Origin: Phyllobates terribilis
Taxonomy: Eukaryota
Direction of reading: 5' to 3'
Length of the DNA: 64,000 bases
NCBI RefSeq assembly: GCF_046119375.1
Contig: NW_027362763.1
Location: 767,622,001 to 767,686,000, forward strand
The stretch's first letter is position 1. Every line of letters begins with the position of its first letter. The notes below the pieces were generated by a model. It had not been told where the DNA came from, did not search any database, and worked only from the letters and a program-made list of their open reading frames with translations. Below, one piece after another: positions 1-58,348 of this stretch. The position numbers and the translations under genes were made by a program.

Positions 1-2622
1 GCACAACTTCCCCTTGTAAAGGAACAGTCTACTCTTTTCTGCCCACAGTTGCTTGGCTTCCTCCGGAGCGTCTGGGTCAAGGCGAGCCTCTGGCCGAGTC
101 AGCATCTCCTTCACCAGCCGGACGGCAGGGTCACTGTCTTGCGTTTCCGCCCAGTTGTAGTGAGGTAAGGGGTTAAGCGTAGCGCCTTGCTTACTCCTTA
201 CCCGATGGGAATACTGGATAGTCCCATGACGGTGAAACGCGGGGAGTTCGACTTCTTCCAATCCCTCTGGATCTTCTCCTACGTCCGGTAGGTTTGGCAT
301 CCTGGACAGGGCGTCCGCGTTGGTATTGGAGCGTCCTGCCCGGTATTTGATTGTGAACTCGTAGTTGGACAGACGGGCCATCCATCTCTGCTCTAGGGCA
401 CCGAGTCTTGCTGTGTCCAGGTGTGTCAACGGGTTGTTATCCGTGTACACGGTGAACCGGGAAGAAGCGAGGTAGTGCTTAAAGCGTTCGGTGACTGCCC
501 ACACCACTGCCAGGAACTCTTGCTTAAATGAGCTGTAATTCTCAGGGTTTCTTTCGGTGGGTCGCAGTTTTCGGCTGGCGTAAGCGATTACTCATTCTTT
601 CCCCTGCTGGATCTGGGACAGCACGGCTCCTAGCCCGATGTTACTTGCGTCGGTGTAGAGGATAAAGGGCTGGCTGTAATCAGGGTACGCCAGGATTTCA
701 TCCCCCGTGAGGGCCATCTTTAGCTGGCGGAAGGACTCTTCTTCTAACTTCTCCCATCTGAAGGGTGGCTTCTGGTTCTTGGCCTTCCGGGACTGGCCTA
801 TCACGAGGTCCTGCATAGGAGCTGCCTTTTTGGTGAAACCGGGGATGAACCTGCGGTAGTAGCCTACCAACCCGAGGAACTGCCGCACTTCCTTTACACT
901 GGAGGGACTTGGCCATTCCTTAATTGCGGTGATCTTATCAGGGTCGGGAGCCACTCCGTCAGCGCTCACCACGTGTCCCAGGTACTGCACCTTTGGTTTC
1001 AGGAGGTGACACTTGGAGGGTTTCACCTTTAGGCCGTAGCTTGCCAGAGCTTCGAACACTTCCGCCAGGTGTTTCAGGTGGTCCTCATAAGTCTTAGAAT
1101 ATACGATGACATCGTCCAGGTACAACAGGACCGTCTCGAAGTTTCTGTGGCCCAGACAGCACTCCATTAATCGTTGGAAGGTTCCTGGTGCGTTGCAGAG
1201 TCCGAACTGCATACAGGTAAACTCGCTAAGTCCCATCGGGGTGGTGAATGCAGTCTTCTCCCGGTCCGCCTCTGCTACAGGAACCTGCCAGTACCCACTA
1301 GTGAGATCCAAGGTAGAGAAGAAGTTAGCAGATCTTAAAGCAGCCAAAGACTCCTCTATCCTTGGTAAGGGGTACGCATCCTTGTGTGTGATACGGTTGA
1401 TTTTCCGGTAATCTACACACATCCTCATGGTGTTGTCTTTCTTTTTGACTAAGACTAGTGGAGCTGCCCAGGGGCTACAGCTATCCCTGATCACCCCAGC
1501 CTCCTTCATGTCTCTAAGCATCCCCTTGGCGTGTTGGTAGTGTGCAGGGGGTACGGGTCGATACCTCTCTTTTATGGGAGGATGGTCTCCCGTGGGGATG
1601 TGGTGTTCTACCCCCTTGACTCGCCCGAAGTCTAACGGGTGTTTACTAAACACTCTCTCGTACTCTTGAACCACCCGATAGACTCCCTGTTTCTGGTGTG
1701 AGGGAGTGGAGTCAGTACCCAAATGTAGTTGCTGACACCAGTCCTCCATTGCTTTCTTAGAGCCGTTACCTTCCTCCGGGTGAGATGGAGGCAAGGGTTC
1801 CACATATTGTATAGCATTTTGGTTAATGGTATATAATTTGGTTAGCGTGGCATACCGGGGCAGGTGCACTTCCCTCTTCCCGATATTGATTATTCGAACG
1901 GGCACCCTCCCATGGCGTACATTAACCACCCCCCGTGCTGTCAAGATGGTGGGCCTACTGTCTGAGTAAACTGGTTCTACCATTGCCTGGTAATCTCTAC
2001 CTCTCAGACCAATAGCTGCCCGGCACCAAATCATCATTTCACTTTTTGGGGGCATGGCAATAGGGAAAGGGTCACACATTCTCACGCTACCAATCTCACC
2101 GCCGGAGAGTTCCACCTGTTGCCGTCGCATCAGTGCCCGGATCTCTTTTTGGAGCACTCGCTGCTCGCCGGAGCTGGCGTTCTTGGCAACCTGCTGTAAA
2201 AGGAAAATCACCTCTGCAAGACAATTTTCAATTACATTAGTTCCTAGAGTTATCTTTGGGTGACTCTCGTGTTTGTCAATGTCTACAATGATCAGTCCCT
2301 GTGCTGCCAGTTCAACTCTACCAATTTTAATGGTCACCTCTTTAAATCCGATCTGTGGCACGGGCTGACCATTGCTGGCGATGATACTCAAGTCATCGTC
2401 AGGGTAGCGGGTAATATCCGAGTCATTCCAGTACTGCTTGAAGAGCACGTACGGGATGGTGGTGACCTGTGACCCGGTGTCCAGTAGGGCACTCATAGGA
2501 ATGCCATCCAGTACCACAGGCAAGACTGGACGTCCTCCCACATATTTGTCGCGCCAGTTCGATGGGCCTGATGATCTTTTTCCTAGGGGTTGGCCCTCTA
2601 CCCTAGGTTGTGCCAGTTTAAA
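1..2622 (-). pseudogene. pol: Gypsy pol (PR-RT-RNaseH) with one premature stop at 592-594
   Basis: ORF 592..2541 has LLDTGS, CVDYRKIN, LDLTSGYWQV, YLDD, YTDAS. After GKE-TGA the same frame reads VIAYASRKL...YTDNNPL...NADALSR to the window edge without further stops (hand translation). Confidence 0.92.
2564..2622 (-). other. Predicted -1 ribosomal frameshift signal (U_UUA_AAC plus pseudoknot) at gag-pol overlap
   Basis: Heptamer TTTAAAC (2622-2616) in the gag frame; pol is in the -1 frame; 8-nt spacer, then stem CCTAGGG/CCCTAGG whose loop GGGCC is complementary to downstream GGCCC. Confidence 0.7.
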
Positions 2623-3578
2623 GGACAGTACCTTGCCATATGTCCGGGTTGATTACAGCGGCGGCAGATGGGTCGTCCGTCCTCGTTGTATCGGTCGCTG
2701 GGTCTTCCTCTGGCCGGTGGGGTCCTCCTTGGTCGACGCCACGGGATGTCCTCCGGTCCGGATGCCAGCTGGATCTTCCCTGGAGTAGAAACCTGTAAAG
2801 ACTGCACAGTTCGGGTTAGCGCAGCAACGCTTTTAGCTAGCTCTTGGACCTGATGGTGCAGGTCTGGAGCCGGGTCATTGCTCAAAGCCTGCGCATCAGC
2901 TCCCACAGGCCCTGCCGACAAGGGCGCCGCCTCCTGGTGGTAAGTAGTAGTGGGGCGTCTGTGGGTCACAACGCCACCTGGTGCCGGTTCTCGGAGCACC
3001 CGGATGGCTCTGTCCTTGAACTGTGCAAATCCCAGATGAGGGTCCTGTAAGGCCATTGCCCGCAACTGGGTTCGGTGGGCATTGCAATATAAACCCTCTA
3101 TAAATTGTTCAGTCAACAGCCTGTCCTCGTCTCCCACGCCGTCAGGGTCGGTCTGCTTAATGGCTCTCAGGGCCTCTTGTAGGTTCAGGGCATAGTCCCT
3201 TATACTCTCATGTGCCCGCTGTTTGCACCCGTAGAATCTAAGCTTGATCTCGGCTGAGGTGCGGGTATCAAAGGTGTCCCTCAGCCGGGTTAGTATCCCT
3301 GCGACAGTCCTCCTCCCAGGTGGCCAGGACTTTACCTCCCTTTGGGCTGCCCCGGTTAGTTGGGCCACCAGGATGCTCACTTTTTGCTCTTCTGTGAGGG
3401 GGCACACCTGGAAGAGGCTATCCAGCTTTTCTTTAAAGTCATTCAGGGTATGTGACTCCCCTGAGTACTGGGGTAGCCAGGCTGCTCCCGGGATATAGGG
3501 CATGGTGAAAGGCATGACTGCAGCAGCGGTGGCGCTGGCGGGGGTTGAGGCAGTGAAGCTCTCCTCCGTATCCGACAT
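2598..3578 (-). CDS. gag: Gypsy Gag (capsid-like region plus CCHC zinc knuckle), 326 aa
   Basis: Open ORF ending in CRRCNQPGHMARYC, immediately upstream of pol. Confidence 0.9.
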   Translation of the reverse strand: MSDTEESFTASTPASATAAAVMPFTMPYIPGAAWLPQYSGESHTLNDFKEKLDSLFQVCPLTEEQKVSILVAQLTGAAQREVKSWPPGRRTVAGILTRLRDTFDTRTSAEIKLRFYGCKQRAHESIRDYALNLQEALRAIKQTDPDGVGDEDRLLTEQFIEGLYCNAHRTQLRAMALQDPHLGFAQFKDRAIRVLREPAPGGVVTHRRPTTTYHQEAAPLSAGPVGADAQALSNDPAPDLHHQVQELAKSVAALTRTVQSLQVSTPGKIQLASGPEDIPWRRPRRTPPARGRPSDRYNEDGRPICRRCNQPGHMARYCPLNWHNLG

Positions 3579-4017: not shown

Positions 4018-4035
4018 ATCCTGCCAACTACGCCA
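4018..4035 (-). promoter_or_regulatory. Primer-binding site, tRNA-Ser(AGA/TGA type)
   Basis: TGGCGTAGTTGGCAGGAT 5 nt after the LTR end; 17/18 match to the recalled vertebrate tRNA-Ser 3'-end complement TGGCGTAGTCGGCAGGAT. Confidence 0.85.
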
Positions 4036-4040
4036 AAAGT

Positions 4041-5039
4041 TGACGCGCCCCTGGGCCTGTGTCGCGCTGCGTTGCGCACGCGGGAGCTTACCCGGAGCCG
4101 GATCTGTTGAGGGTTGTAGTCTCGTGGCGGTGACCCGGTCCGTGCCCAGGGAGTCAAACTGAGCGGCGATGTATCAGCGGTAGATGTTGGACGACTACGC
4201 CACCCGTTGAGTACAGCTAAGGAGCTCCTGCTGCAGGGCAGACCGCTGAGGCCGGTGGTAGGATTGTGCAGCGTGATAGTATAACCCCCAACGGGAGGGG
4301 TATGGCCTCAGGGCAGCCGACGTGGATGATGGGGGTAGCAGGAACCACTCGGAGACGGTACGGTGTAGTTCAGGGTCTTTACTGGTGACAAAGATAGACC
4401 TTCCCGGAGTACTGGCTAGCGATTGGGGCCTGGTCAGTCCTTGAGCAGATGGGATCTCCCCTGGCCAGGCGGAGTTGTAGGCCTCCCAAACTAACTACTC
4501 TTCTGGCTACCTTGCTAGAGGCGGGTATAAGTAGCCCACGTCCCTGAGTGTACCGTGTGGTGCTCACCCGTATGGCCGGTGACTCGGGGCCTTCTAGTAG
4601 CTTCCGCTCCACGACGGCGGTGCTGGTCCCATGCGTGTGACCGTGCCTTCGGGTTTCTTGGCCAGAGGACCTGGAATCCCCTGCCTGACGGATTCTGCTG
4701 CTGGGTAGGAGTTAGTCCCCACAGCCTCGGACTCCGGGTCCGGTAAGAAATCTTCTCAGTCAGGGCGAGCTCTGCAGCTGCCAGCCCCTGACTCCTTGTA
4801 ACACTGCTCCCACAGAGCTCCTGATGTTCTGTTCCTATATTTGCTTCTTTTCTCTGTCTCTACTTCTTCTCTACTCACTAACCCTGCCTCAGCCCTAGGT
4901 TTATATAGGGGAAGTTCTTCCCCTCCCAGGACTGGGCAGGAGGTGTGGCATGCATAGGATTCCTGACCAAGAGACCTCCCACTTGCTCTCAGACATAACA
5001 TTGCTGTTACTGTGGAAACCAGATCCCTGGGGTGCCACA
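4041..5039 (-). repeat. Gypsy 5' LTR (~1.0 kb)
   Basis: Starts TGTGGCACCCC, ends GGGGCGCGTCA; TATA-like CCTATATAAA near 4900; AGTAAA at 4383-4378; followed by PBS. Confidence 0.9.
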
Positions 5040-14142: not shown

Positions 14143-15780
<1,638 letters not shown>

Positions 15781-16559: not shown

Positions 16560-19485
16560 ACCCACTTATCATACCCCTTTCCTGAATTCACTTCTCAATC
16601 CTGTCTTCAGTGAAGGTTTTCAACTCACTGAGGGATCAGATTTCAAAACTGTCGTGTCAGGATCTGAACGACTTTGACAAGAGCCAAATTATGATGGCTG
16701 AATGACTGGAAGGTCTCCCAATTGGCAGATCTTATGGAGTGCTCCTTGGATGCCATAGTTAGTACTTACCATAAGTGGTCTAAGGAAGAATGCTGATTGA
16801 TGCATGTGGGGAGAGAAGGCAAGCAGAGCTGATCTGATCTGATCAAACAGAAGAGCTACTGTAGTACATATCGCTGAAAAAGGCAGTGCTGGACCGTCAG
16901 AGGTCTTGTCTTTCTTAGCTGATGGCTGATTGGTTGGTGTACAGCGATTGGCTATGACACCTATGTAGATAAAACAGCTGGGAATTTGGAGTTCTGAACA
17001 ACACCTATACTATTCACCATTTTCACCAAACCTTTCCAGAACAACTTTTGCCCTGAAGGAGATTGATTTTGATTGGGTGGTGTGGATAAAGGAAACAAAA
17101 GTGAGAGGTTTGGTGCCAATCTGGGAAAGTGCAGAGGACCCATGCATGGTGTCTACTGGAGCTATGGTTGGCTTGTGGAATAGTTAGACCTGTAGCCTGT
17201 CCCACCTGGGAAATGGCAGTAAACTACAAGATGATGCAGGCTTGGCCATCGGAAGATGGACTGATTGCCTTGAGCATCTTGCCCATGTGACAGATTAGCA
17301 GTTAGCTGAAAGTCAGGAGGCTTGATTTGGGTCACAAAGAGAAGCTGTATGGAGAATCATGTTACATGCACGCCGCTAGGTTCAGATAGGGCGAGACGAG
17401 TTTCATGAATTCGTTGGAATCCTGGGGGAACCGTCACTCAGGGCGACCATAGGCTGCAGCTTCTCTCAGGCTCACAATACATTCAGTTGCTGACCAGACA
17501 CATCTGACAAGAGTCTTCTAACAGTTTAACAGTGGAATTTAATCTGAAGCACAGCCAGTGCAATTCAGGGATATTGCAGCCACAATCTTCATTACAGTAC
17601 AGTTTAATAAAGCAGGCACAGCAAAGTCAGTCTCTTCAGTAGCATAATTCAACATAGATTAGGTCTCTTAGCAGCACACTTCTATGCATACACAACCACA
17701 GGCTTTTCCTTCACAAGGACTCAATAGTACACAGCATTCTTTATCCTGCATGGAGATGGAGGGGGGGAGGGTTTGATGAGGGAGATGATCCCTATGACAC
17801 GATTCTTTCCAGTCCTTATCTTTCTGCCTGATAATACTCCACACTGTTAGCTCAGGGAGTCTATCTGACCTGTGTTTAGCTTCCCTCCTGACCTGAATTC
17901 TGTTCCCTTGCCTTCTGTGAGATACAGATCATAAGCCACCTTTCTTTTCGGCTCCGGCCAGAGAGTAAACAACTTCCCCACAATCCCCCTGGGGCTCTGC
18001 TAAAACACTCCCCCTTCTCCTGTGACTGTGTTAACCCCTCTAGTTGCTGGATTCTTCTGGAGCACAACACCTCCTGTCTCCTGTGCTTGTGTTACTTCTA
18101 ATAGTTGCTGGATGCTTTTGAAGCAGCAGCACTACTTCTGCATGCCACAATCACCCAGGGTTCTTGGGTGAATCTCTAGAGAGGAGTCATTTGGCTGCTT
18201 TGAAGAACAATGCCTGGAAAAAAAAATTGAGAACAGAGGGTTGCTACCAAAGTAACTTCTACACAGTCTGAGGTTTGGAATGCCCTGTCATGGAGGAGAG
18301 TGGCTCGCTGTGCTCTGTGCCAGCCATCCTTAAGATTACTAGGCTGAGATTCTAGTCAGCCTAGATGAGGAGAACTGCAACTATTAAGCTTTCTGTACCA
18401 TTATGTGAAGAGGAAAATAAGTAAATTTGGATTGTTTGATCTGAATATGATCTGCAGTTGTCTGTGAGTGGGGAACTTTTCAAGAAGCCCCTTAAAACAG
18501 CATCATCAAACTGTACCATACATATGGATATAAGTAATGCTCATAAACAGACAACCGTAAAAATCGGAAGAGTTGCACGAGTTGCATACAGTTATCACAC
18601 TCGCCCATTCATGCTTATAGGTCCTTGAAAAAAACGGACCACACTCGGATGTCATCTGAAAGCTGTCCGAATTTTACGGATGGACAGAATGGAGAAAACG
18701 GAGAAATTTATTTATTTTTTTATTCTGCACATCCAAGAAAATAGGATCACAATCTGATCAGACTTTGATCAGAGTGTGATTAGGATAATCGGACCAATTT
18801 TTCTCGGATGAGAGAAAAACGGTCATGTGGCCCTTGCCTAACTCTGGTGATTCAGACCCCTGTAACTTTTACCAGAAAATTCAGGCCTGCCTGCATCTTG
18901 TTTCCGCTCTTTTCCCAGCTGCATACGTAAATGACTCATCAGGCTTTGAACAGCAGTAATTTAAGAGACAAATGAGTAATTGCAAAATACATTGTTTTGT
19001 TTGCTATTGGAGCAATGGAATATTTAGTCACATATAAGCTGCTGGATGTGTTTATTGTACTGCACAATTCCTATATTAGCTCTTAAATAGTAATATTTTT
19101 CATGTTTATATATTGAAATATTATTCTGAAAAACATAACAGTTTGATTAATAGCTTGAAAGACAGCAAAGAGTAACACAAAAGAATAAAAGCTGTTTTCA
19201 TCACAGCTCAAAATCCGCTACATATACAAAGATTTTACAGATATTATGCCACCCGCCTGCAGCCGCCACTAGAAGATTAGAAAACTAGCTGCATACTGAT
19301 AAGACATTGAACTTAGAGCATAGCTGCACTTTCACATAACTTTTCAGAATAAGCTGTCCTGTGAACATGAAGAACACTATTTCTTGTCCTATATCCCGCA
19401 TTTTCATCAGTTTCTCCTCTGCAGGCTTTGTCTCTAATTTTCCATTGTCTCTGAGCTAGTGGGTGGAGAATAGCTGTTATGATGT

Positions 19486-19902
19486 TGTTAGGATCATTCA
19501 GCCATGGAGGGTCCTTGTTGGAGTCGGGGTATCCCCGTAACAAGAAATACACAGACACGTAGTGTATAATCAAGTACTGGGAAGCCCCTGAGCGCGTCTG
19601 CCTCTATAGGTGCTGTCCCTTTATTTATACTAATAATCATATTTTTTTGTCAGACATGCGCAGTAAAATGCCTTTGTTTCACAAGCAGTGAAGTGATGAT
19701 TCATAACAGTGGAATGTTGATAAGAAAGTTTCATAAACAGAAAAGTGATAATTCATAGCAGTAGAAGGTTGCTGAGACAGCTAAAAACAAGTTACAATCT
19801 AATTTCTGGGCGTCAGTCCAAATGTCCAGATAAGGGAAGAATAACTTCATCTGTGTCTTACATCGTAGTCTTGGGTGAAGTATAACTCCTATCATCCTCT
19901 CA
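19486..19902 (-). repeat. ERV 3' LTR
   Basis: TG...CA termini; preceded on minus by PPT AAAGGGGGGAC (19913-19903). Confidence 0.97.
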
Positions 19903-19966
19903 GTCCCCCCTTTGATTCTTCCTTATGGACTTTTGGTAGAAGACCTGGTCCGGGAGTTCTTTTCTT

Positions 19967-21537
19967 TCATATTCTTGAATCCGTGTTACAAAGCTTATTT
20001 ATGCATATTAAAATAATTTTTAATCCTATTTTAAACACTACATATATGACTACTATAATTAGCACAATCTGTAATATACCTTGCAGAATTCCAGCCACCC
20101 AACCTCCAATACCCTTAAACCAGTTCTTTGGGTTGAGAAAGGAGAAGGTGTCTGACCACCAGCTATCTTTATTTTGGTCATTGTGTCTGTCATATTCATC
20201 CCGTAATCGTTGTATATCTGCCAGCTTGAACCTCATACTCATTGTACTGTTTGGATCTATGTAATGACAACAGGTTGGACCAATAATTTGACACATTCCT
20301 CCCTGGGCCGCAGTTAGGTAGTCTAACACTACAGTATGTTGATTAGTAACAATTATAAGTTGATTTTGGACAGCTATACTAGTATTAAGTATATCCATAA
20401 TATCCCATATCTGATCATCTAGATAGTCGGTGGCCTGAACTAATTTATCCCACATCTGCATCAACATTGGATACACAAAGAAAGTGCTGAATATTTTATT
20501 AGGAATTCCCATTTGGACCACATGTGGCCTACCTGAAGGTCTAGGCGAGTTGTCGGCTGCTCTTTTGTATAGTGTGTGTTTAGGTACTGCTTGCATATCT
20601 ACCTGCTGATTCTGAACTATAAATGTGGCCGGTGTTAAGCGTCCTAGAGTACATGCACCTTTTATTCCTACTGGGAGCCATTTGTATGCTCCATTTCCAC
20701 AAATCCAGAAGGTTCCTTCAGGCAGATCCCATATTGCAGAGTGTTGGAGCACCAACCTATGTACCAAATCTAAAAATTTAGATACATTCTGAAGTATACA
20801 CCAAGGGGGTTTTTGACCTAATGGACTACAGTATCCTGCATCTGGATTTTCACAAGTCGGTGTACCTGGGTCATATGCACTTGACTCATTACATAATATA
20901 TTACCTGGTATCTTTGAACATGTATCATTGTTTCCATCGGGGAATAATTGTGAATATTTCCAACCATTATTGTGTATGTATTTTTCTACTATATCAGGTT
21001 TAAAAGGTTGAGAAGAAGATACTGTGCTACTAAAACTGAGTTGTATATTTTCTGTAGGAATTAACCCTAAGTCTGTTAGTCCCATCTTATTTCTAGGAAC
21101 CCATACACCTCCTTTAAACGCTAAATATTGTAAGTTGTTTATTTTTCCGGTCATATTACCTTGCCACCAGGGAAATCCCACCCACCCCACAACTGGGATG
21201 GCAACAGTGTGTTCCATAATCTAGAATTAACGGTTTGGTTATTTGCTAATTTGTCTGAGCAATTAGTCCATGTAAACACTTCCTCAGGGGTCATGGGTAC
21301 GGCCAGGAAGGGTATGCTCGTGGCTGATATTGGAGAATGCGTACAAATCCAACAGTCTGCTATTTTCTGTCTGCCATCGAGCAGCCCGTTTACCAATGTC
21401 TCATGATGTTTTATAAATTTATTATCTGCAGGTTTTGGGGAACTTAGTTTATCCCACAGGTCTCCCTGATCTATCGTTATAGCTAACACAAGTACAATCA
21501 CCACTATTTCTTTTTGCAATGGCTTGCATGTACCCAT
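19967..21537 (-). pseudogene. env: ERV env (gamma-type), split by one frameshift near 21220
   Basis: Signal peptide and CWIC (CXXC) in 21151..21537; LYKR cleavage site, ISD-like TNQHTVVLDYLTAAQGG, CX6CC (CQIIGPTCC) and hydrophobic anchor in 19967..21217. Confidence 0.93.
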
Positions 21538-24167
21538 GCTGATTTTCCTTCCAATTTTACTGCAGTTGGAGTTGTCAATAACACCTGATATGGACCCTCA
21601 AATCTGGGTTCTAGCGTTCTTCTGTTATGTCTTTTTACGTAAACTTCGTCTCCTGGTTGCAGCTTGTGCGTTCCCTCGATGGAATCTGGATCTGGAATGG
21701 AAGAGAACACTAAAGAGTGTATTTTAGACACATGCTTACATAAATTTTGTACATAAGCAGTTAAGCTTTCAGTTTCTAACATTAAAGTCTGTGGGAAATA
21801 CAATCCTGTATTGGCAACTCTACCAAACAATATTTCATGGGGGGTGAGTTTGCTCTTTCCCTGGGGGGTGTTTCTGACTGAATACAATGCTATTGGGAGA
21901 CACTCAGTCCATGGTTTCTGTGTTTCTGCCATGGCTTTCTGTATTTTTAACTTAAGTGTTCCATTCATTCTCTCAACCTTACCAGAACTCTGTGGGTGGT
22001 AAGGGGTGTGTAGTTCACTTTTTATACACAACATTTTCATTACATTCTGAAAGATCTCTCCAGTAAAATGTGTACCTCTATCTGACTCGATCACTTCTGG
22101 GATACCATAACGGGGTACCAGTTCATGTGCTATTTTTACTGCAGTGACTTTAGCCGTGGCTGTATGAACTGGATAAGCCTCTGGCCACCCCGAAAACATG
22201 TCCACACATACCAGTACATACTCATAGTGTCCATGCTTAGGCATCTGGATGTAATCGATCTGAAGTCTCTGGAACGGATATAGTGGTCTTACATGGTGCT
22301 TCTGGGGGGTCTTAACAGTCTGTCCTGGATTGTGGGCTAAACAGATTTCACAAGAACCACATTTTGCTCGAGCTACCTGGCCGAACCCTGGGGCTAACCA
22401 CTTCTGTCTGACCCTCTGTATCATACCGTTTGCAGACACATGTGTAGGTCCGTGGGCTTCACTGACCACAACAGGGTACCACGCTCGGGGGAGACAAAGC
22501 TCATCTCCTTTTCTCCATAGTCCTTCTTTTTCTTCTGCCCCCTGTTTCTGCCACTCTTCTTTTTCTTCTCTACTCACCTGCTGGTGGGCTTCTTTGAGCC
22601 GTGTAATTAAGTCAAATTCTGATACTGCACTAATAGTGTGGTCAGTTGTCAGAGGTTTTACTGCAGCTCGCTTAGCAGCCTTGTCGGCTCGGTCATTACC
22701 CCTAGCTATCTCGGTGTCGAGTCTTACATGTGCAGGTACTTTTATTACTGCTACTTGTTTGGTTGAGGCAGCTGATTCTAGAATTTGTCTAATCATTGAA
22801 ATGTGTTTTGGCAATACCTGATTCAGTATGCCATGTACATCATGTGTAGTTTGTACTATTAAGGCATGGTCTAGTACTATTTCTGAGGCTTTTTCTACCA
22901 AAAGAGAGACAGCTGCTACTACTCTGACACATGATGGTGCAGCTTTGGTAACATTATCTAATTGAGCAGAATAGTATGCGACAGGTCTTTGTTTATTTTC
23001 ATGTTTCTGTGTTAGTACTCCTGTAGCATGATTAGACATTTCCGCAGCCATTAATTGGAATGGTTTGGCGTAGTCTGGGATTCCCAAGGCCGGGGCTGAC
23101 ATGAGACCTTTCTTGAGGTCTTGAAAGGCTATGAGCGCTGATTCAGTTAACTGAAAAGGCTCGATTTTTAAACAATCATATAGAGGTTGCATAAGCTGAC
23201 TAGCATGTATAACCCATTGTCTGCAGTGTGATACTATTCCCAAAAATGCTCTTAATGTTTTGTAGTTCTTGGGAGGAACAAGATCTCTAATGATTTTTAG
23301 TCTGTCGGCGGTGAGGTGCCGAATACCTTGTGAAATGCAGTGACCTAGAAATACTACCGTAGTCATATAAAGTTGTACTTTTTTCTTGTTAACTTTACAG
23401 CCCATGTCTGCTAGAAATATTAACAATCTTATTGTGTTGCTGTTTGCGGACTCTTGAGCAGGGGCACATAACAATAGGTCATCAACATATTGAAGAATTA
23501 CAACCTCATCCGTAGGTTTGAAATTTTGAAGAACTGATCTCATAGCTTCTGAGTACAAGGTAGGTGAATGTATCATACCCTGTGGTAATCTTGTCCATGC
23601 TAATTGTCTATTCTTAAATGTAAATGCAAACAGTTTGTAACAGTCTGGGTGTAATGGTACTGAAAAAAATGCATTTGACAAGTCTATGACAGAAAATACT
23701 CGTGCTGTTGCTGGGATCTGTGATAGCAACGTGTGTGGATTTGGCACAACAGGAGTAATAGGTTCCAAAATTTTATTTATCTCTCTTAAATCATGTACCA
23801 TCCGGTATCTAGCAGCTGACCCCTCAGTAGATTTCTTTTTTACGGGGTACAACGGTGTATTGGCTGGTGACTTTACTTCTATCAGTACTCCAGTTTTTAG
23901 ATAATCTTTTATCTGTTCTCCTATGGCGTGTTCTTGTTGGGCACTAATAGGATACTGTCTCAATTGGGGTAGTGTCACACCTGGAACAGGAGTGACTTTT
24001 ACTGGAGCTATTGGCATTAGTCCTACATCGGTGTCATGTTGTGCCCATAATTTTTCTGGTACCTCAGAAAGATCTAAAATAATTTGGGTAGGGGCAGGAT
24101 CTTTCTCATCCTCTAAGGCTTGGACTTTTACAATGTTTTCTAGAGACTCTTGGTCATCAGGCACCAA
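21504..24167 (-). CDS. pol: ERV Pol (RT, truncated RNase H, integrase); no protease
   Basis: 887-codon open frame with VHDLRE, LPQG, YVDD, HHCC zinc finger, DDE integrase and GPY motif; RNase H N-terminal catalytic part absent. Confidence 0.9.
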   Translation of the reverse strand: MVPDDQESLENIVKVQALEDEKDPAPTQIILDLSEVPEKLWAQHDTDVGLMPIAPVKVTPVPGVTLPQLRQYPISAQQEHAIGEQIKDYLKTGVLIEVKSPANTPLYPVKKKSTEGSAARYRMVHDLREINKILEPITPVVPNPHTLLSQIPATARVFSVIDLSNAFFSVPLHPDCYKLFAFTFKNRQLAWTRLPQGMIHSPTLYSEAMRSVLQNFKPTDEVVILQYVDDLLLCAPAQESANSNTIRLLIFLADMGCKVNKKKVQLYMTTVVFLGHCISQGIRHLTADRLKIIRDLVPPKNYKTLRAFLGIVSHCRQWVIHASQLMQPLYDCLKIEPFQLTESALIAFQDLKKGLMSAPALGIPDYAKPFQLMAAEMSNHATGVLTQKHENKQRPVAYYSAQLDNVTKAAPSCVRVVAAVSLLVEKASEIVLDHALIVQTTHDVHGILNQVLPKHISMIRQILESAASTKQVAVIKVPAHVRLDTEIARGNDRADKAAKRAAVKPLTTDHTISAVSEFDLITRLKEAHQQVSREEKEEWQKQGAEEKEGLWRKGDELCLPRAWYPVVVSEAHGPTHVSANGMIQRVRQKWLAPGFGQVARAKCGSCEICLAHNPGQTVKTPQKHHVRPLYPFQRLQIDYIQMPKHGHYEYVLVCVDMFSGWPEAYPVHTATAKVTAVKIAHELVPRYGIPEVIESDRGTHFTGEIFQNVMKMLCIKSELHTPYHPQSSGKVERMNGTLKLKIQKAMAETQKPWTECLPIALYSVRNTPQGKSKLTPHEILFGRVANTGLYFPQTLMLETESLTAYVQNLCKHVSKIHSLVFSSIPDPDSIEGTHKLQPGDEVYVKRHNRRTLEPRFEGPYQVLLTTPTAVKLEGKSAWVHASHCKKK

Positions 24168-24177
24168 AATTTGGATT

Positions 24178-24381
24178 CTACCATCCTTTGTCTCTTATCA
24201 CTCCTGCTTTTCTAACCCGAATGTCCTCCCATAGTTTCCTGTTAAACCTGTCATGCCTTGCTACCTGAAAAGTTTTGCAAACTTTCCCTAAATTCTTAGT
24301 TGCTTCTACACCACACCTTTCTTTCACGATCGTATAGACATCTTGTTCATCATTTGTGGTCTTAGTCTGTTTGTTGCCCAT
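24178..24381 (-). pseudogene. gag: ERV gag remnant (matrix N-terminus only)
   Basis: MGNKQT myristoylation motif, 67 aa, then runs directly into the protease C-terminus/RT region. Confidence 0.75.
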
Positions 24382-24468
24382 TTTTCCTGACTATTCTTAC
24401 CTTAGGAGGCTTTTTGGGTTAGATAAAATATATTCTATATTTTACCTTTCCTCGTTACCTATTCTGTC

Positions 24469-24597
24469 CTAAGGAGCCAGTATCTGAAACGGTTTCTCTG
24501 GACCGTTTTGTCTGAAGTGTAGAGTAATTCTAACACACATATATATGGCAACAAGGGCAAGACCAACAATACATAAAATGAACCATACAGTCTCCAT
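24469..24597 (-). CDS. Putative 42-aa single-pass membrane leader (pre-gag) protein
   Basis: METVWFILCIVGLALVAIYMCVRITLHFRQNGPEKPFQILAP*; strong Kozak context ATAATGG; hand-translated, below the ORF-track cutoff. Confidence 0.5.
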   Translation of the reverse strand: METVWFILCIVGLALVAIYMCVRITLHFRQNGPEKPFQILAP

Positions 24598-25085
24598 TAT
24601 ATATCGTGTCCCTGGAGTATTATCATTACTTCCATGGGCTCATTCTGTCAATCTCTTATCCGTCAAAAAGGAGGACAAAGGTTCGGGAGTTAAGCGTGAG
24701 CGAAGGTTTCCCCGAAAGGACACAACCTTATGACTCAGTTAGGCAATCTCCGTAATACTTATGTCATCTACCTTAGTGCGGCTTATGAGGCTATTCCCGA
24801 CATCCACATCTCTTTCATACCATCCGTTTCATAACCTTCTCTGACCTCTCCTTCGGCAGATCCTACAGTATATACATGAATGACCCGAGCTATAGGTATC
24901 CTTCTCTACTAGTTCCTCAATCCCAACACAAGATATGCATGAAATTTACGGACTATCGCAGAGCAGATGTAAGAGAACTAACAGTGTCTCTTACCTGGCC
25001 AGGTTTGTCATCTGCTGTTCCGATGTCCCAATCTCAGCGGTTACTCGTGCCGGTCGATGAACTTGAAGGAATACGCAGACCTCGG

Positions 25086-25104
25086 GTCCCTGTTTCGGGC
25101 GCCA
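25086..25104 (-). promoter_or_regulatory. ERV primer-binding site, tRNA-Lys(UUU)-like
   Basis: TGGCGCCCGAAACAGGGAC versus canonical Lys3 PBS TGGCGCCCGAACAGGGAC (one extra A). Confidence 0.9.
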
Positions 25105-25109
25105 GGAAT

Positions 25110-25526
25110 TGTTAGGATCATTCAGCCATGGAGGGTCCTTGTTGGAGTCGGGGTATCCCCGTAACAAGAAATACACAGACACGTAGTGTATAATCAAGTA
25201 CTGGGAAGCCCCTGAGCGCGTCTGCCTCTATAGGTGCTGTCCCTTTATTTATACTAATAATCATATTTTTTTGTCAGACATGCGCAGTAAAATGCCTTTG
25301 TTTCACAAGCAGTGAAGTGATGATTCATAACAGTGGAATGTTGATAAGAAAGTTTCATAAACAGAAAAGTGATAATTCATAGCAGTAGAAGGTTGCTGAG
25401 ACAGCTAAAAACAAGTTACAATCTAATTTCTGGGCGTCAGTCCAAATGTCCAGATAAGGGAAGAATAACTTCATCTGTGTCTTACATCGTAGTCTTGGGT
25501 GAAGTATAACTCCTATCATCCTCTCA
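25110..25526 (-). repeat. ERV 5' LTR
   Basis: Identical by eye to 19486-19902; followed on minus by the PBS. Confidence 0.97.
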
Positions 25527-29298: not shown

Positions 29299-30569
29299 TG
29301 TGGCGCCCCTGCGGGTTCAGTCGCCACAGAGGTACTGCATCTCACCCAGAGTTGTGGTACCCCACTCTCAGGTAAGGAGGGAGTACTGCCCGGACCCACG
29401 CACCTACATCCCACACTACACCATTTCAGACCAGCAGAAGGGGCAAGATGCACTTATCCATTGCTGAGCCCTGTCCCTGGTTGGAAGGGGGGGGACCAAG
29501 AGAGGGGGAACCATGTAGTGAGTGTGGGTGGAGGAAGTAGTTCAGGGGAGCACCATCAGAAAGAGTATAAGAAGGAGGGGAACCATCTAGAAGGAGTTCT
29601 GTTCAGGTCAGGTCAGTGGAAGTACAGAGGAGAGACAGTGGGGAGTGGGAGTTCAGAAGGAGCTCTGCCCAGGAGAGAGAAGAGCGGGCCTAGCCTGAGA
29701 GGCCCAGGAGACAGAGGATGGGAGCAGAGGGAAGGCTCCAGAGACAGAGGGGATCTCAGGGGCACAGTGAGTGCAGGAAGCCACCCGTGCGCCCGAATCT
29801 ACACGGACTTGGAGGGATCAGGCCACAGAGGGCACCGGCCCCTAAACTAGTGGAGAACAACCAGGCTCGGCTAGATAACCGGAGGCTGCTGCATTTTCAA
29901 GGTGCTGCAGCCAACAGCCACAATTATATTGCCAAAAAGGTGGCCGCATAGGGTCCAGGGGACTGCAGGTCGCCTGACAAGGCCCGAGCTCACTGGCTTG
30001 GGACACTGATTGTGAGGCGCAGGGCAGGAGAGTGAGAGCCAGCACAGTGAGACGACCGGGAAAGGTACATAGAACGGGGTCCCGTTTAAGTGCTCCTGAA
30101 ATACCTGAGAGTTTGCTGGATCACTACCCCGGAGGACACAGGACGACGGGGGCGGTTATAATCCGGAAAGTGTAACCTGAGGAACTTAACAACTGTGAGT
30201 AAAACCTGATGACTGCACCCCACCATGTCCCTGAATAATTGGTGCGCCATCACCTGCACTACACTGCACCAACAACATCTACCTCATAAAATCAACATCT
30301 ACTGCCCTGGAGCTTAGCTCTGCCTGTGGAGAGCTGAACCAACTCTGCTGCGTCACCATCAGCTCCAGAGGATCTGCACCGCAGCGACGGCCCCATATAG
30401 CCGCATACCACAGGTGGCGTCACAAACTTTTTCTCTAAAAACTTTATTCCCCTTTTACTTTCCCTTTAATTGACCACCCTGGGTCACGGACCGGGTCACT
30501 GCCACCGTGACTACCCCGATACAGGACCGGCCCGGCTACCGAGTAACCCACGGCCCAGGGGGCGCATCA
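29299..30569 (+). mobile_element. Gypsy-type solo LTR
   Basis: TGTGGCGCCCC...GGGGCGCATCA, 4-bp TSD TATC. Confidence 0.9.
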
Positions 30570-31926: not shown

Positions 31927-32943
31927 TGTGGCACCCCAGGAGTCCGGTTGCCACAGTGGCATTGCTTCCCTCACAAGGGGTGATGCCATGCCTGGAAGCA
32001 AGCAGGGGTCCCCTAGTCAGGTATACTAGCATGCATCACTTTCCTGGCTCCAGACCAGCAAGGGGAGCTCCTCCCCTTAGCAACTGGAATCTGGAGGCGG
32101 GGTTAGTTAGAGTTAGTGAGAGGAGTTGAAGTCAGGAGAGCGAAGAGGAAAGACCCGGGGAGTGGAGCTGCACGGCAGTTCACCCAAGAGAGGAGCGCAG
32201 AAGAACCGGACACGGGAGTCCGAGGTTGTGGGGCACTGAAGGCCCAGCAGCAGAAACCAGAGGGCAGGAGACTGCAGGTCTCCTGGCCCCATCAAACGCC
32301 CGGAGGCTCAGCAGCACCATAGGGCCCAGCACCGCCACGTGGGAGCGACACTCCAGGAAGGCCCGAGCTGCTTGCCATACGGGTGACCACAAAGACGTTT
32401 TACTCAGAGACGAGGGCCGCAGCATAGCTATAAGCAGCAGGGCCAAAGAGATTAGCGCGAAGGGAAGGCCTACAACTTCACCTGGTGAGGTGGATTCCCA
32501 ACTTGCTTCCAGGCCTCCCGGACCTCTACTACCAGCTAGTACCCGTGCCCCAGTCTGCCTAACCACCGCAAGTAAAGATAAGAGGAAACCGTCACTAAGT
32601 TGTGGACTGGTCATTATCTGCGCCATCCCCTGCACTACACCGCACAGCAACATCTATAACATCACCACTTCTTGCCGTGGAGCTAAGCTCTGCCTGTGGA
32701 GAGCTGAACCAACTCTGCTGCGTCATCATCAGCTCCAGAGGATCTGCACCGCAGCGGCGGCCCCATATAGCCGCATACCACAGGTGGCGTCACGAATATT
32801 ATATATATATAAAACTTTATTCCCTTTTCTTTATTCCCCTTTTATTGACCGCCCTGGGTCACGGACTTGGTCACCGCCACTGTGACACCCCCAGCACCGA
32901 CCGGTCCGGCTGCCGAGTACCCCACGGCCCAAGGGGCGCGTCA
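31927..32943 (+). mobile_element. Gypsy-type solo LTR (possibly mosaic)
   Basis: TGTGGCACCCC...GGGGCGCGTCA; 3' third similar to 29299-30569; flanks CATG/GAGG do not form a TSD. Confidence 0.85.
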
Positions 32944-42462: not shown

Positions 42463-45400
42463 CAGAGTGGATTTGATTTAAATCTAACTGATTTAAATCA
42501 CGATTAAAATCACGATTTAAATCAGTAGTCAGTAAGGCTTGATTTAAATCAGTGATTTAAATCAAAGTTTCTACCTAAACTAGTTCTTGCTACTTTAACA
42601 TGCAAGTAGATGAAGATTTTTAGAATCACTTTTTATATTACTTTTTTCTCCCCAGTTTAATGGGTTAATCATTCATATTTGGACACCACTGTTCTGTTGT
42701 ACTTAGGAAGGAGAAAAATAATCCTGACCTTAATAACAATTTAAATAGATTTATTCAACTGAAACAATAACAACATTACAGCATAAGTTATTTGCTTAAA
42801 CAAACATCCATGTTTGTTAACTAATTTGGCTAAACAAAATATATATATATTTTAAGAAACTTAGACTGTCAGCCCAGCCGACACATGAAAAACTTAAATA
42901 CTACTGTCCCTGCTGTCCTCTGTAGCTCACTCGTCGTCATCTTCATCATCATCTTCTTCTTTGTTCCTATTCATAATCTGGAAAAGAAAAACAAGCTTTC
43001 CTGCTTTATTGGGTCCCAACCGATTTCTCAATTTAGAATGAATGAGTCCAAAGGAAGAGAATATTCTTTCAACGCCTGCAGAAGAAGCTACTGCTGTTAA
43101 AAGTGAAATCATTACTTGAACAGTCTCTAAATCCAAGCGCTTAAGTGACTTCCACCAGTTTACTGGTGTGACCTTCCTTAAAATATCTTCAGCAAACATA
43201 TATTTCTTGAATGGTTCCCCCTTAGCTCTGAAGTTTATTATAGTTGGCATTAAAGATGGATGATTGCTGGATACCCATGTCATAGCTAACTCGTCTTCCT
43301 CAGCACTTAGGTTTTGACCCTGATATTGGATATTGACAATATTTGCCAAAAAATGAGCTGGAGTCAGTGCTTGTCCCATTCGTTTGTTTACTGCTTGTAA
43401 TTTAATTCTGTCCATGTGTAGTTCTGTTTTTAAGTGTTCACTCAGTTCCTTCCAAATTTCAACAGCATCCGCAATAAAACAGCTATTTTTCTGTATTTTG
43501 TTTAAAGCTTGAAAGATGGGTTTCAGGAAGCTCAGCATATGTTCAACATTTCTCTTAAGCCCAATGTTGAGGATTTTGGCCGTGACAGTGCCATCTATTT
43601 TATCTCGATTTTCTTCACAAAGTGTCATCAGAATAGGCCAGTTTTTGATATACTGCTTAAAACAGTCCACCACAGAGTTCCATCTAACATCTTGTGGGAG
43701 CGTTAGCTTGGTTCCACCCATCCTTTTCAGAGCTGCTGCAGCAAAATGATTATTACGGAAGTATTTAGCAATTTCAACAACATTAGCCTTTATTTCTGGA
43801 ACACTTAAGTCTTTGGCTAAGAGGTGCAGCAAATGAGCACTGCAACCATATGTTATTAGCAGCTTTGTATTCCCTCCCTGCTCTTCTAAATTTCTTCTCA
43901 TCTTGGATACGTTTGCAGCATTGTCAGTGACCAAACTGCGTACTAGACATTTGAATTTTTGTTCACATGTTGTTATAGCTTTTACTGCCACTTCTTGTAA
44001 GTATTCTGCTGTGTGTGCATTTCCTGACGTATCAGTTGTTTGTGCAAGGAAGACTTTACCTTCTTCTGTTGTTATACAAGCGCATACAATAGGATCATTG
44101 TGGACATTACTCCACCCATCAATACTTAGGTTAACAATTTTACCCTCCAGAGCTGTTGCACATTGCTCCATTTCTCTGTCATACACTTGATCCAGCAGTT
44201 TCCCTGCAACATCAGCTCTGCTGGGTGGACTGTATCCTGGTCTCAGTGACTGAACCATATTAATAAAATGTGGGTTCTCAGTCAGACGGAAAGAAGAGTT
44301 CGTTGCATAAATAAACTGGGCAATTTTTTCATCAATCAACTCTTTTTCTGATCTGCTAGTTCTTATCACAAACCTATCTATGGTGGTTCCAGGAGGTAAA
44401 GGTTTTTTCTTCCTTTTGGGTGATGGTGATATGTGGCTGTGGGTGTCTGATGATGATGCTGCTGCTAATGAAGCACTATCCTGGATGGATAACTCTGAAA
44501 CTGTAGAACAGGATGATGGTGATCTTGGAGGTGGATAGTTTCCAGAATCCATGAATTCCCCTAAACAAAAAAGTCAATGCTGTTATTTTATTGTTTATAC
44601 AATTTCTGCTTATTGTACACAACACATCACTGCCCCTGCCCCAAAAGGAATATTTGTTTTTCTTCATAACTGTACCAAATGACAGTAACATGCAGTAATA
44701 CTAAGAAATATAATTTTTCTCACACAAGACAGTTCAGTCTTTAGAAATAGAATTCAATAAAAATGTTTACCAACAGATCCTGCCTGTTCAGAAGTGTTTC
44801 TTTGGTCATCATCATCACCGCACTTCTCATGATGTTGCCTCATTCGCGCCACCAGGCCTTGCATCTCTTTGTTGCATCGTTTGCATTTTGCACGCATGCC
44901 TGCCTTACCGATAGGCGAAGGAGCTTCATTAAAATATTCCCAAACTGGGTCTCTTTTACGGCCTGCTACCATTATAAGGAAAGAATGTAATAAACCTCAG
45001 ATCGTACACACAAACAGATCCAGACTTGTCTGTCTGTGGCTATGCTGCAGTATTGTGCTCAAAGTTTCACTTTCATTTTCTTCTCTGCTTGCCCTTCCTC
45101 CTCCTCACACTTAGATTCACATTCTTCTTGTGTTGTGCAGATCTATTCCACTCCAAACAATCAGAAACATATTGTCTAACTTCTTGGACTTGGCACTGAA
45201 GGGGTTGATTCTGTATTCATAGGTTTGTAGAACAATAGGATTAAGGTCTTTTTCTCAACTCTGTTCATGTTGTAACATTTTTGCCGTGAAGAAGAGGCTG
45301 TTACCTCTGCGGAGTCAAATTCAGTTTTGAGAACTGCGTAAGTAAAGCGAGCGTCTGTGATAATATAGGAGAGAAACTGCCCACTAATCCTACAGAAACC

Positions 45401-54339: not shown

Positions 54340-56817
54340 TTTTTTAAAACACCTGGACATAAGATGTGACCCTCCACAAAAGGAGCACTCGTGTTTGTAT
54401 TAGCAAGTATCTTTCCTCATTGTAGTTTGAGCCAGTATTTGGCACTGAACATTAGCAGGTTTGGAGGGCAACATAAGGTTCAGCCACAAAACCACATCCT
54501 TAACCCCCCCCATCTAAGGGATGGGTATACCGATAGTTTCTGTCTACAATTCTCATCATAGACATACCAGCTCAGATTGCCAAAATATTTGTATGCTTCC
54601 AATACTATTTCCACATGTTGGAAAAGCCCTGAACACTTGCTGGGAAACCTCTCACCCATAACATAATACAAAAGGCTTGCAGACAATTATTAAAAGACCC
54701 TGGAATCGGTCTGCGTCTATCATCGTCTTTCTCCAGCCGGGACAAAAAGTCCTTAGAAGCTGGCAGCAAAGACAAAATATCCAAATATTCATTACACCAA
54801 ATTTTTTTTTTTACTGTTATAGGTAAGTGATAACCCAGAGAGGAGACAGTGCATACTAACGCTTCCTTATAACAATCCTCCCCTACCCCTTTTACTCCTG
54901 AAGCTACAGGAGTTAACATGGATTCCTGCTCCCCCCTCTCGCCCCCCCAGGCCCTGGTCTAAGTGCTTCCATACCTCAGCTACACCCGGGGCCCTGGAGG
55001 ACAGACTAGCTGGCCTAGAAGGCACAGCAGGGGGCTGTAATAAGAACCTCAATGAGGGCAATACATACAACTGTTCCAGAGTGTAGTGTGTATCATGTTT
55101 GCTATACTCACCGCCATCAGGCGACCCGTTCTGACTGTCCTCACGCCTGAAGACCTCGTTCTCTGCGGGCTCTCCAGCTTGCGGACCGTCAGTCTCAGGA
55201 CCAGCAACGGCTTCCTCCAGCCGGTTGTCAACTTAGGCCTTGTGTGTGGGGTGACATCAGCGGCACCCCTGCGTCCTGGCCTCCTCCCTGGTGTACCATG
55301 CGCCCTCACTGGGGATGGAGAGTATACCACTCTCCTCCTCCTGCTCCTGGCTTCGCCACGCAGGACCGCGCCGCTGGATGACGTCATCAGGGCTTCCGGC
55401 TCAGCGTCGGTGATGCGCTCCTCCAGTGCTTCCTGTTCTCCGTTCAGTCTGCGGGCAGCACTCGGTCCAGGCACATCTCCCTCATCCTGGTCCAGGCATC
55501 GACAGATCCATGACAGGGCACCTTCCTCCCCCATCTTGCGGTGCAGCTCCTCCATCAGGGCGACCATGGTGACACAGGTGTGACGCAAAGCTGCGCTTGG
55601 TATCACAGATCCTAGAAGGGTGTATTGAAGGATTCCTCCACAAGAAGCCCCCATAACCATTCACACATCTCCACCTTCCACCTCAGACCACCAGAGGGAG
55701 CCCGTTAGGGATAGATAAATAGGGAAGGTGGAGCCAGGCAGCAGTAAGTCTATTCTGGAGTCAGAGTCGAGTTCAGTCTGGTTTAGCAGTGAGTCCAGTG
55801 CAGTCTGAGAAGAGTTACCTCAGAGGACAAAAGCCTGTTCCAGCTCCTGCAATTGCTATCCTGCAGTGGAGCTTATCCAGATCAAGACTCCGGGTAGCTC
55901 AGAGAGGTGAGCGTTAGGTGTGCCAGCGCCATAAGATCGGTGAAGCGCGGCGAGCTGCCGTTAGTGTGAGTAGCCTAGTGAGGGCCCGAGTAGGCCGAAG
56001 GCGAGTGGAGAGTTAGTACATAGGGGGCAGAGGAGCTTAATTGGCTCACCCCGAAGCAGTTACCAGACACCGGGTCCGAAGCTTACCGGATCTCCACGAC
56101 CCAGTAAGATAAACCGGAATCCCTGGAGAACTACAAGTCCCAGGATCGCTAAATTGCTGATACGTAACAGAGCCAGGAGACACATAGGCCCCGTAAGTTG
56201 GGAGCGTGCACTCCAAGAGAAGGCCCAACCACAAGGTCAGCCAGCGCAGGACAGAGACAAAGTTAGGCCTAGCTCCAGGCAGGTGAGAAACTTACTACAC
56301 AGAGGCAAGAAACAGGAGGCCCAAAACTCGCTCCTTGGGGAGGATCCTGACATGCACCCTTCACCCTACAGTGCTCCGGGACGTGCCTGAATTTCCATCA
56401 GTAAAAGGTACTGAAGTGACTATAGTGTCTGTCCCCGTTCTTGCTCTGACCCGGCTCGGTCTCGCCTGTCCTGCATTCCCCATCCATACACTGCCCTGAG
56501 GCCTAGCTCCACCTGTGGGGAGCTATACCACCCAGCTGCCTTATCACCGGCCTCAGTGGACTGCGCAGCGCTGGTGATTCTCACCAGAAGCCACAGGTGG
56601 CGTCACGAACTCTTTTATAAACTTAACAAATTATCCACCCTTTTTAAGGAGAGACCCCAGGGTACTGGCCCGGGAGCCGACCGCCGCGACATCCCCAAGG
56701 CTAAAGGCCCGGGTATCCGAGTCATCCCCATCCCCTGGGCTTGTCACAGGCACGGTGGTGGCAGCCGCACTAGATGAGCAGCGTCTGAGGACTGACACTC
56801 TCCTCAGGCGATGCCAT
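54340..56817 (-). pseudogene. Ngaro ORF1 (gag-like with zinc fingers), interrupted by a solo LTR
   Basis: ATG 56817 (MASPEES) reads across the LTR insertion into CVTMVALMEEL; C-terminal WYVYDENCRQK and HECSFCGGSHLMSRC motifs. Confidence 0.75.
55579..56746 (+). mobile_element. Gypsy-type solo LTR inserted in Ngaro ORF1
   Basis: TGTGAC...TTGTCA, 4-bp TSD CAGG. Confidence 0.88.
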
Positions 56818-57104: not shown

Positions 57105-58348
57105 TGAAGCGCTCTCTGGGCCGTGGGGTACCCGGTGCCAGGCCGGTAGATGCTGGGGGATGTGTCACAGTGGTGGTGACCTGGTCCGTGACCCAGGGCG
57201 GTCATTCAAAAGGGGATTATTTACAGGGGAATTATATACAAAGTTCGTGATGCCACCTTTGTTATGCGGCTAAGGGAGCCGCCGCTACGGAGCAGGTCCT
57301 CTGGAGCTGATGTAAGTGCAGTAAAGCTGGTGTGGCTCTGCACAGGTAGAGCTTAGCTCCAGGGCAGTGTAGATGTTATAGGTTGTGCTGGGCGTTGTAG
57401 TGCAGGGGTGATGGCGCAGACAATAATCACAGAGACAGTGGGGTGCAGTCTTCCGAGTTTACTCACAGTGGTTAAGTTCCTCAGGTTGCACTGTCCAGCT
57501 TACAGCCTCCCACGTCGCGATGCGTTCACCAAGCAGGGGTTCAGCAATCCCCCAGATAATTCAGGAGCACTTAACGGGACCCCTTTCTGTGTGCCTTTCT
57601 CAGTCGTCTTCCTGCGCTGGCTCTCACCCTCCTGCCCTGCGCCTCGCAACCAGTGTCCCAATCCGGTAGCCTCGGGTCTTATCGGGCGACCTGCAGTCCC
57701 CTGGACCCTCTGTGGCCACCTCGGTGATATAGTTGCGGATGTGGCCACTGCACCCTGCAAGTACAGCAGCCTCCGGTTCCTAGCTGAGCCTTGTAGTTCT
57801 CCACTAGTTAAGGGGCCGGTCCCCTCTGCGGCTTGATCCCTCCACCGCCTGGCAGATTCGGGCGTACGGGTTGGCCTCCAGCACTTCCCGTACCCCTGGG
57901 ATCCCTTCTGTTCCTGGAGCCTTTCTCCTGCTCCCTCTCCTCTTCTCTCTCTCCTTCTTCTCTCTCAGTCCTGGGCCTCTCACTAGGCCCGCTTCCGGAG
58001 CAGAGCTCCTGCAGAGCCTCTGCTCCCCTCACTTCCCTCCTCTGACTGGCTTGTCTTTCTAAGATGGCTCCCCTTTTTATACAGCTTCCTTTCATGTGCT
58101 CCCCTGAACTACGTCCTCCACCCACACCCACTACATGGTTCTCCCTCACTAGGTTCCCCCCACTCCAGCCAGGGAAGGGGCTCAGCAGGACAAGAGGCAT
58201 CTTGCCCCCCCCTGCTGGCCTGGAGTGGTGTGTTGGATGCAGATGTTAGGGTCCCGGGCAGCACTCCATTCTTACCTGAGAGTGGGATACCACACCTCTG
58301 GGTGAGATGCAGTACCTTTGTGGCGACTGAACCCTCAGGGGCGCCACA
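57105..58348 (-). mobile_element. Gypsy-type solo LTR, same family as 29299-30569
   Basis: Minus-strand TGTGGCGCCCCTGAGGGTTCAGTCGCCAC...GCGCTTCA, TSD TATA; splits Tc1 transposase. Confidence 0.9.

Follow-up and report, generated by a model that had tools for sequence, protein, structure and literature searches.

The window analysed here is a stretch of 64,000 nucleotides from Phyllobates terribilis (assembly GCF_046119375.1, contig NW_027362763.1, positions 767,622,001 to 767,686,000 of the forward strand). Five Gypsy-type LTRs lie in it, called A to E below, and each carries a short copy of the start of a primer binding site (PBS), referred to as the inner site. The features discussed are listed here.

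592..2652, minus strand: pol of the window element, with protease, reverse transcriptase (RT) and the start of RNase H
2598..3578, minus strand: gag of the window element, with a zinc knuckle; its matches to PNMA and Retrotrans_gag are weak
4018..4035, minus strand: true PBS (18 nt) of the element of LTR A, matched by a host tRNA gene in L132
4041..5039, minus strand: LTR A, 5' LTR of a Gypsy element of the tRNA-Ser(AGA/TGA) type, identified by its TG..CA ends and complete relatives
4116..4128, minus strand: stretch in the terminal U5 stem-loop of LTR A, complementary to the 5' end of tRNA-Ser(AGA) apart from a 2-nt bulge
4187..4325, minus strand: structured U5 module of LTR A (junction stem, hairpins and pseudoknot) with the inner site at its end, predicted from covariation and a match to the model built from relatives
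4192..4202, minus strand: inner site of LTR A, complement of the CCA end and acceptor 3' strand of tRNA-Ser(AGA/TGA)
4203..4209, minus strand: predicted pseudoknot 3' strand of LTR A, adjoining the inner site
4289..4295, minus strand: predicted pseudoknot 5' strand of LTR A, a hairpin loop
4378..4383, minus strand: putative poly(A) signal AGTAAA of LTR A, from which the extent of U5 is deduced
29299..30569, plus strand: solo LTR B, target site duplication (TSD) TATC; pseudoknot strands 30323-30329 and 30408-30414, tRNA 5' site 30501-30511
30415..30427, plus strand: inner site of LTR B, tRNA-Ser(CGA) type
31927..32943, plus strand: LTR C, a mosaic without TSD; pseudoknot strands 32693-32699 and 32778-32784, tRNA 5' site 32876-32886
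32785..32796, plus strand: inner site of LTR C, CGA type
55579..56746, plus strand: solo LTR D, TSD CAGG; pseudoknot strands 56512-56518 and 56591-56597, degenerate tRNA 5' site 56680-56690
56598..56610, plus strand: inner site of LTR D, CGA type
57105..58348, minus strand: solo LTR E, TSD TATA; pseudoknot strands decayed, tRNA 5' site 57164-57174
57243..57255, minus strand: inner site of LTR E, CGA type, with one CpG-type change

The initial annotation had placed the five motifs and the PBS at these positions, with 136-151 nt from the motif end to the LTR end, AGTAAA 337-367 nt from the LTR end and TSDs around the motif in three copies (B, D and E); all of this was confirmed on the sequence. 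The motif is present in all five LTRs as claimed, but they are not five independent cases, as the similarity is 76% between LTRs B and E over the full length and 84% between C and B over the last 330 nt. LTR C itself is partly like LTR A in its 5' half and like B and E at its 3' end. The assignment of the inner site to U5 follows from the position of AGTAAA or AATAAA only; neither the strand nor the start or end of a transcript could be read from the contigs of four possible RNA runs.

The window element has gag followed by protease, RT and RNase H and no env, which is the order of Ty3/Gypsy elements, the Barthez clade included. Its Gag matches PNMA with an E value of 5.7e-4, below the Pfam cut-off, and the PNMA match is clear in relatives of the distant clade discussed below. 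Relatives of the element occur in frogs, fishes and amphioxus. In the accessible parts of the published descriptions, Barthez elements have a PNMA-type Gag, a length of about 7.9-8.3 kb and LTRs of more than 1 kb, and those parts mention no tRNA site or structure in U5 (PMC3670739, PMC11117352). The weak PNMA match of the Gag and the size make the Barthez clade a putative place for the frog family, a likeness drawn from such descriptions. The window also holds an apparently young endogenous retrovirus-like element (19485-25408) with two identical 300-nt repeats and pol-like and env-like frames on the minus strand, and, at 42927-44573, 14470-15561 and 52783-54033, reading frames whose translations, inspected by eye, resemble hAT and Tc1 transposases and fragments of DIRS RTs.

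The inner site lies within true LTRs. Both LTRs were found at 23 of 40 long loci, and in all 23 both carry the motif with at least 10 of 11 matches; a 4-bp TSD encloses 20 of these elements, all of them with the motif in both repeats. The loci thus fit what marks a true LTR feature, namely presence in both terminal repeats, within a TSD and with a PPT ahead of the 3' copy, and this rules out units made of an LTR, a PBS and deleted internal sequence. One AGA-type LTR (L148) is followed by a PBS for another primer while its inner site is unchanged, so the inner site is inherited and not recopied.

The inner motif is identical to the first 10-13 nt of the PBS of the same element. Host genes for tRNA-Ser(CGA) and tRNA-Ser(AGA/TGA), confirmed with ARAGORN, are complementary at 18 of 18 positions to the two PBS types once CCA is added. 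Alignment with these genes bore out the earlier proposal that the motifs are complements of the two tRNA 3' ends, and that the inner motif of the full element and its PBS at 4018-4035 address the same tRNA. The match to the tRNA ends sharply at position +11 in the AGA type and at +13 in the CGA type. In the genome, patterns for the CGA and AGA/TGA PBS types match 6,051 and 72,575 times, where one site may count twice. Exact patterns give 50,108 AGA/AGA and 4,205 CGA/CGA pairs of inner site and PBS, against cross pairs of 1 and 4, five in total, so the covariation with PBS isotype that had been put forward as a check holds. Of the five cross pairs, three come from chimeras in which the element's own 3' LTR carries the AGA motif; a small deletion accounts for another, and the last is a mis-primed copy from a family that is normally AGA-primed. 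When loci were chosen by the PBS alone, a cognate match of at least 10/11 was present in 48/50 AGA-type and 51/70 CGA-type loci, and a non-cognate match in none of the 120 (shuffles, 1/2,400); the misses inspected are due to decay, deletions or truncations.

Judged from the trees, the isotype covariation represents one or two primer switches only. AGA elements are nested among CGA elements in the RT tree, on no starred branch. In a tree of LTRs with the motif columns removed and two damaged rows left out, the second AGA family falls inside CGA, but the test still allows a single AGA clade (p-AU 0.10). How several bases could switch together is illustrated by L233, in which the inner site of the 5' LTR has been rewritten to the full 18-nt tRNA complement and that of the 3' LTR is unchanged. 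Within each type the motif columns are conserved at 0.93-1.0 in rows that, like the 41 representatives used below, were selected for an intact motif start; the linker that follows is at 0.58-0.59 and other U5 stems are at 0.8-0.9. The motif is therefore more conserved than its flanks, which had been put forward as a further check.

Several other observations were made on these families. Single copies whose PBS fits another tRNA-Ser than that of their family (L148/L224 and L311/L236) look like snapshots of mis-priming. In the chimeras L237-L239 a CGA-type LTR is joined at the LTR/PBS junction to a non-autonomous AGA body and 3' LTR. Young non-autonomous derivatives that lack pol are abundant (L206, L208, L209, L211, L213, L215, L219, L220 and L223); they are 4.4-5.2 kb long, have LTRs that are 99-100% identical and keep the whole U5 module. 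In L031-L060 the terminal CA is separated from the PBS by 3-8 nt, depending on the subfamily, where 2 nt is usual, which may bear on end processing by integrase.

The structure of the RNA around the site was predicted from 41 frog representatives obtained by clustering 83 intact loci at 90%. The 120 nt upstream of the motif are predicted to form a junction stem and hairpins in which 14 of 34 pairs have changed on both sides. Pairing was possible in 91.8% of cells versus 34-52% in slid controls, a comparison that favours the structure, as it was drawn by eye from the sequences on which it was scored. RNAalifold independently recovers the nested helices. The loop of one hairpin is predicted to pair with the 7 nt directly before the motif in a 7-bp pseudoknot, so that the helix ends where the motif starts. 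Two pairs of this pseudoknot covary among the 41 rows (UA/CG in 14 rows and GC/UA in 9), and in 35 of 41 representatives the inner site is directly preceded by the end of a helix of 7 bp or more, compared with 5.6% of control positions. A search of the window with the structure model matched exactly the five LTRs, and an Rfam search of eight loci gave no match in the U5 module. A second pseudoknot (GCTGC/GCAGC) was considered and is unsupported, as its strands are nearly invariant and RNAalifold pairs them otherwise. An HDV-like or hammerhead ribozyme has the wrong helix order, judged by eye, and dimerisation through a quasi-palindrome fits only the CGA motif. There is no intact antisense tRNA gene in the window because ARAGORN found no tRNA anywhere in it; the spacing of the two tRNA-complementary sites also varies.

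The second of these sites is in the loop of the terminal stem, about 70-90 nt downstream of the inner site, and is complementary to nt 1-11 of the tRNA. The complement is near perfect in CGA types and 12 nt long in the second AGA family; in the main AGA clade it is interrupted by bulges or mismatches. A GTCAC hairpin noted earlier in this region is present in four window copies but is not a general feature, as its 5' arm is missing in many subfamilies; the part that persists is the 3' part, which is complementary to the tRNA 5' end. By prediction, the loop site favours cognate over non-cognate tRNA in 24/25 CGA and 10/16 AGA representatives, and it is engaged in the co-folds of 6/16 AGA representatives. 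It is absent from three of four distant families and is also found in elements with no inner site. In many Ser-primed Gypsy LTRs, even those lacking an inner site, the last 60 nt contain a complement of the tRNA-Ser 5' end, either at the very end or in a loop (for example L419, L509, L482, L402, L413, L526 and the L517 family; shuffles were as good in 0-1/100). This complement may be a widespread second contact.

The energies discussed here are folding predictions that ignore tRNA modifications and the chaperone. The duplex of the inner site with the tRNA is predicted at about -21 kcal/mol and that of the PBS at -34 to -36 kcal/mol. The ends of tRNA-Ser are self-complementary, so the inner site can also pair inside the RNA, with the U5 loop, at -11 to -14 kcal/mol. 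Opening the inner site would cost 3.2 kcal/mol versus 6.4-8.1 kcal/mol for the PBS start. In co-folding without the PBS, the cognate tRNA lies on the inner site in 38/41 representatives and on both sites in 23/41, and the non-cognate tRNA in 0/41.

A similar design was found in distant relatives. Metagenome contigs yielded 36 distinct LTR-like junctions that have an AGA PBS, and four families among them have an inner match of 10-12 nt, 37-86 nt upstream and after AATAAA or ATTAAA, with one LTR per copy examined (shuffles, 7/3,600). In all four a hairpin helix of 6-8 bp ends exactly at the site, compared with 1-11% of control positions. The Gags of three of these families are about 22% identical to the window Gag, and for one family the named Gag relatives are teleost proteins. 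A Gag tree of 20 rows rejects a single clade of all motif bearers (p-AU 0.0036); hence the design of helix plus site was either gained twice or lost repeatedly. The inner site is missing at 32 of the 36 LTR-like junctions, and the other frog Ser-primed families examined have none; since most Ser-primed relatives do without it, the site is not essential to the lineage. It is the design only that is shared and not a fold, as the frog structure model found no match in the distant clade. Searches of viral contigs gave 0 matches and 1 irrelevant match.

The inner site is a real, selected RNA element. It is best explained, with moderate probability, as a conserved copy of the PBS start placed behind a predicted 7-bp U5 helix, where it is likely to serve as a non-priming dock for the primer tRNA-Ser. 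Since the inner site is predicted to be more open than the PBS, the CCA end of the tRNA would pair there first and stack on the end of the helix. The acceptor stem would unzip, with its 5' strand held by the complementary U5 loop. The capping of the dock is suggested because the 3' end of a docked tRNA would face the helix and have no free template; as the helix would deny RT a single-stranded template, the docked tRNA would not be extended. The tRNA could then move to the stronger 18-nt PBS or remain as a second packaged tRNA. Docking therefore likely aids primer capture or hand-off. It is more tentatively proposed, and we lean towards doubting it, that two distant Gypsy lineages independently evolved such a helix-capped, non-extendable dock for the CCA end, which unzips the acceptor stem and hands the tRNA to the PBS.

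A second docking site had been suggested in the initial annotation, and the docking part of that suggestion stands as the best reading but priming at the site does not. A PBS that is used is recopied to 18 nt in each cycle and sets an LTR end. An 18-nt inner site exists in only three copies genome-wide: L233, rewritten in one LTR as described, and two in which the leader follows the inner site directly and no 3' LTR lies within range. These are what would be expected of a true second priming site that yields short strong-stop DNA, but among LTRs whose sequence diverges immediately ahead of the site, none terminates at the site with a TSD: 0/28 (all matches) and 0/30 (of 54), 0/58 together, with patterns that are specific to two subfamilies and overlook a quarter of the ends that could occur. 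On sequence grounds, the inner site would thus lack both marks of a productive PBS, the rewriting to 18 nt and the LTR end with TSD. Non-integrating products started from the inner site would leave no trace in such counts, and a second priming site is considered improbable. The site could instead act in the cDNA: RT would pause at the helix at the moment when the growing minus strand terminates in a DNA copy of the tRNA 3' end, and this end could pair with a PBS and displace the primer or prime the partner RNA. By geometric inference this accounts equally well for the register, the helix and the covariation, and L551 has the predicted junction from PBS to inner site with a duplicated U5 end. 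However, with the pattern used this is the only such junction in the genome versus about 50,000 normal ones, its product damages the LTR, and ectopic recombination also explains L551. A role in the cDNA is therefore unlikely, though less so than second priming.

Pairing within the RNA itself is the alternative we take most seriously, although it too is unlikely. It holds that the PBS mimic pairs with PBS-complementary U5 sequence, keeps the PBS open and never binds tRNA. Downstream GCCAC/GACTAC tracts recur in the AGA and distant families, and making the inner site unavailable raises the predicted cost of opening the PBS in 13/16 AGA representatives, but the sign is opposite in 15/25 CGA representatives, so that an RNA switch, also raised in the initial annotation, does not hold as a general function. 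The internal pairing is moreover weaker than that with the tRNA, position 11 of the CGA type fits the tRNA (61/61) and mismatches the loop, and it leaves unexplained why the site begins precisely with the CCA complement and has a helix in front of it. The same annotation had considered a 3'-tRF decoy, which would draw off tRNA fragments that otherwise block the PBS. In the accessible portions of one report such fragments repress LTR elements through the PBS (PMC12853362); the inner site, however, pairs with no more than the last 10-13 nt of the fragment and misses its 5' seed, its predicted binding is 12-15 kcal/mol weaker than that of the PBS, and a decoy does not need a capping helix, which makes this role very improbable. 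The site could also be a neutral relic of an old LTR end and PBS kept matched by rare templated rewriting. A CA and a short spacer precede the site in some frog subfamilies, and L233 indicates that rewriting is possible. But the flanks resemble an LTR end in 0/13 cases and the leader in none beyond one marginal case, the distant clade has no CA end, the conservation of the motif far exceeds the 0.58 of the linker, and rewriting yields 18 nt where the families retain 10-13. This view is largely refuted and is the least probable of all.

The proposed dock for the primer tRNA can be compared with several known systems. The usual explanation of how retroelements select, package and open a primer tRNA invokes Gag/NC, synthetases and contacts with other arms of the tRNA. 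In the T-box antiterminator, a bacterial regulatory element, a UGGN tract beside a helix captures the NCCA end of a tRNA by stacking. The T-box pairs over only 4 bp, whereas the frog site pairs over 10-13 nt and the acceptor stem must open. A contact of the primer with U5 is reported for FIV (Miller 2001). The FIV contact reportedly involves the tRNA 5' end. HIV-1 has accessory U5 contacts with the primer outside the PBS, namely the PAS and the A-rich loop, according to the accessible text of one source (PMC11181671). As far as the portions available describe them, retroviral U5 contacts co-adapt when the primer changes, and the frog loop site may work like these; none of those compared duplicates the binding site of the CCA end as the frog inner site does. 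For Ty1, the accessible part of one study indicates that a leader pseudoknot is needed for reverse transcription and sites outside the PBS for tRNA packaging, but the Ty1 boxes it describes are 3' of the PBS and bind the T and D arms, with no second acceptor site, and so differ from the frog site (PMC4974528).

The initial annotation had drawn a comparison with the bipartite PBS of Ty3. According to the available portions of the sources, Ty3 and Drosophila gypsy have second sites near the RNA 3' end that bind the T/D or anticodon arms, and that of gypsy is 11 nt long and dispensable for cDNA synthesis (PMC5371799, PMC1635307). On these descriptions the frog elements are alike in being Ty3/Gypsy elements with a second tRNA-binding site, but the frog inner site is complementary to the acceptor 3' strand that the PBS also uses, and it is upstream in U5 behind a predicted capping helix. 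All of the extra tRNA sites compared, those of Ty1 and the retroviruses included, bind other arms of the tRNA. The comparison therefore holds for the presence of a second site and not for the part of the tRNA that is bound. Only the loop site would bind a different part of the tRNA, and in both frog and distant copies the inner site lies beyond the putative poly(A) signal and would not be close to the 3' end of the RNA. Searches of mostly open-access literature turned up no account of a second acceptor or CCA-end site in U5, and the helix-capped inner site is apparently undescribed for such elements. Every solo LTR of the family in the 10.6-Gb genome carries a tRNA-end complement. The family amounts to a natural experiment: it has more than 50,000 copies that use two primer isotypes and show compensatory changes, and the site is present in some relatives and absent from others. 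If the reading as a dock is true, the capture step could be carried out by the genome RNA itself through a capped site for the CCA end. The frog site would work like an accessory primer contact and is not a bipartite PBS of the Ty3 type.
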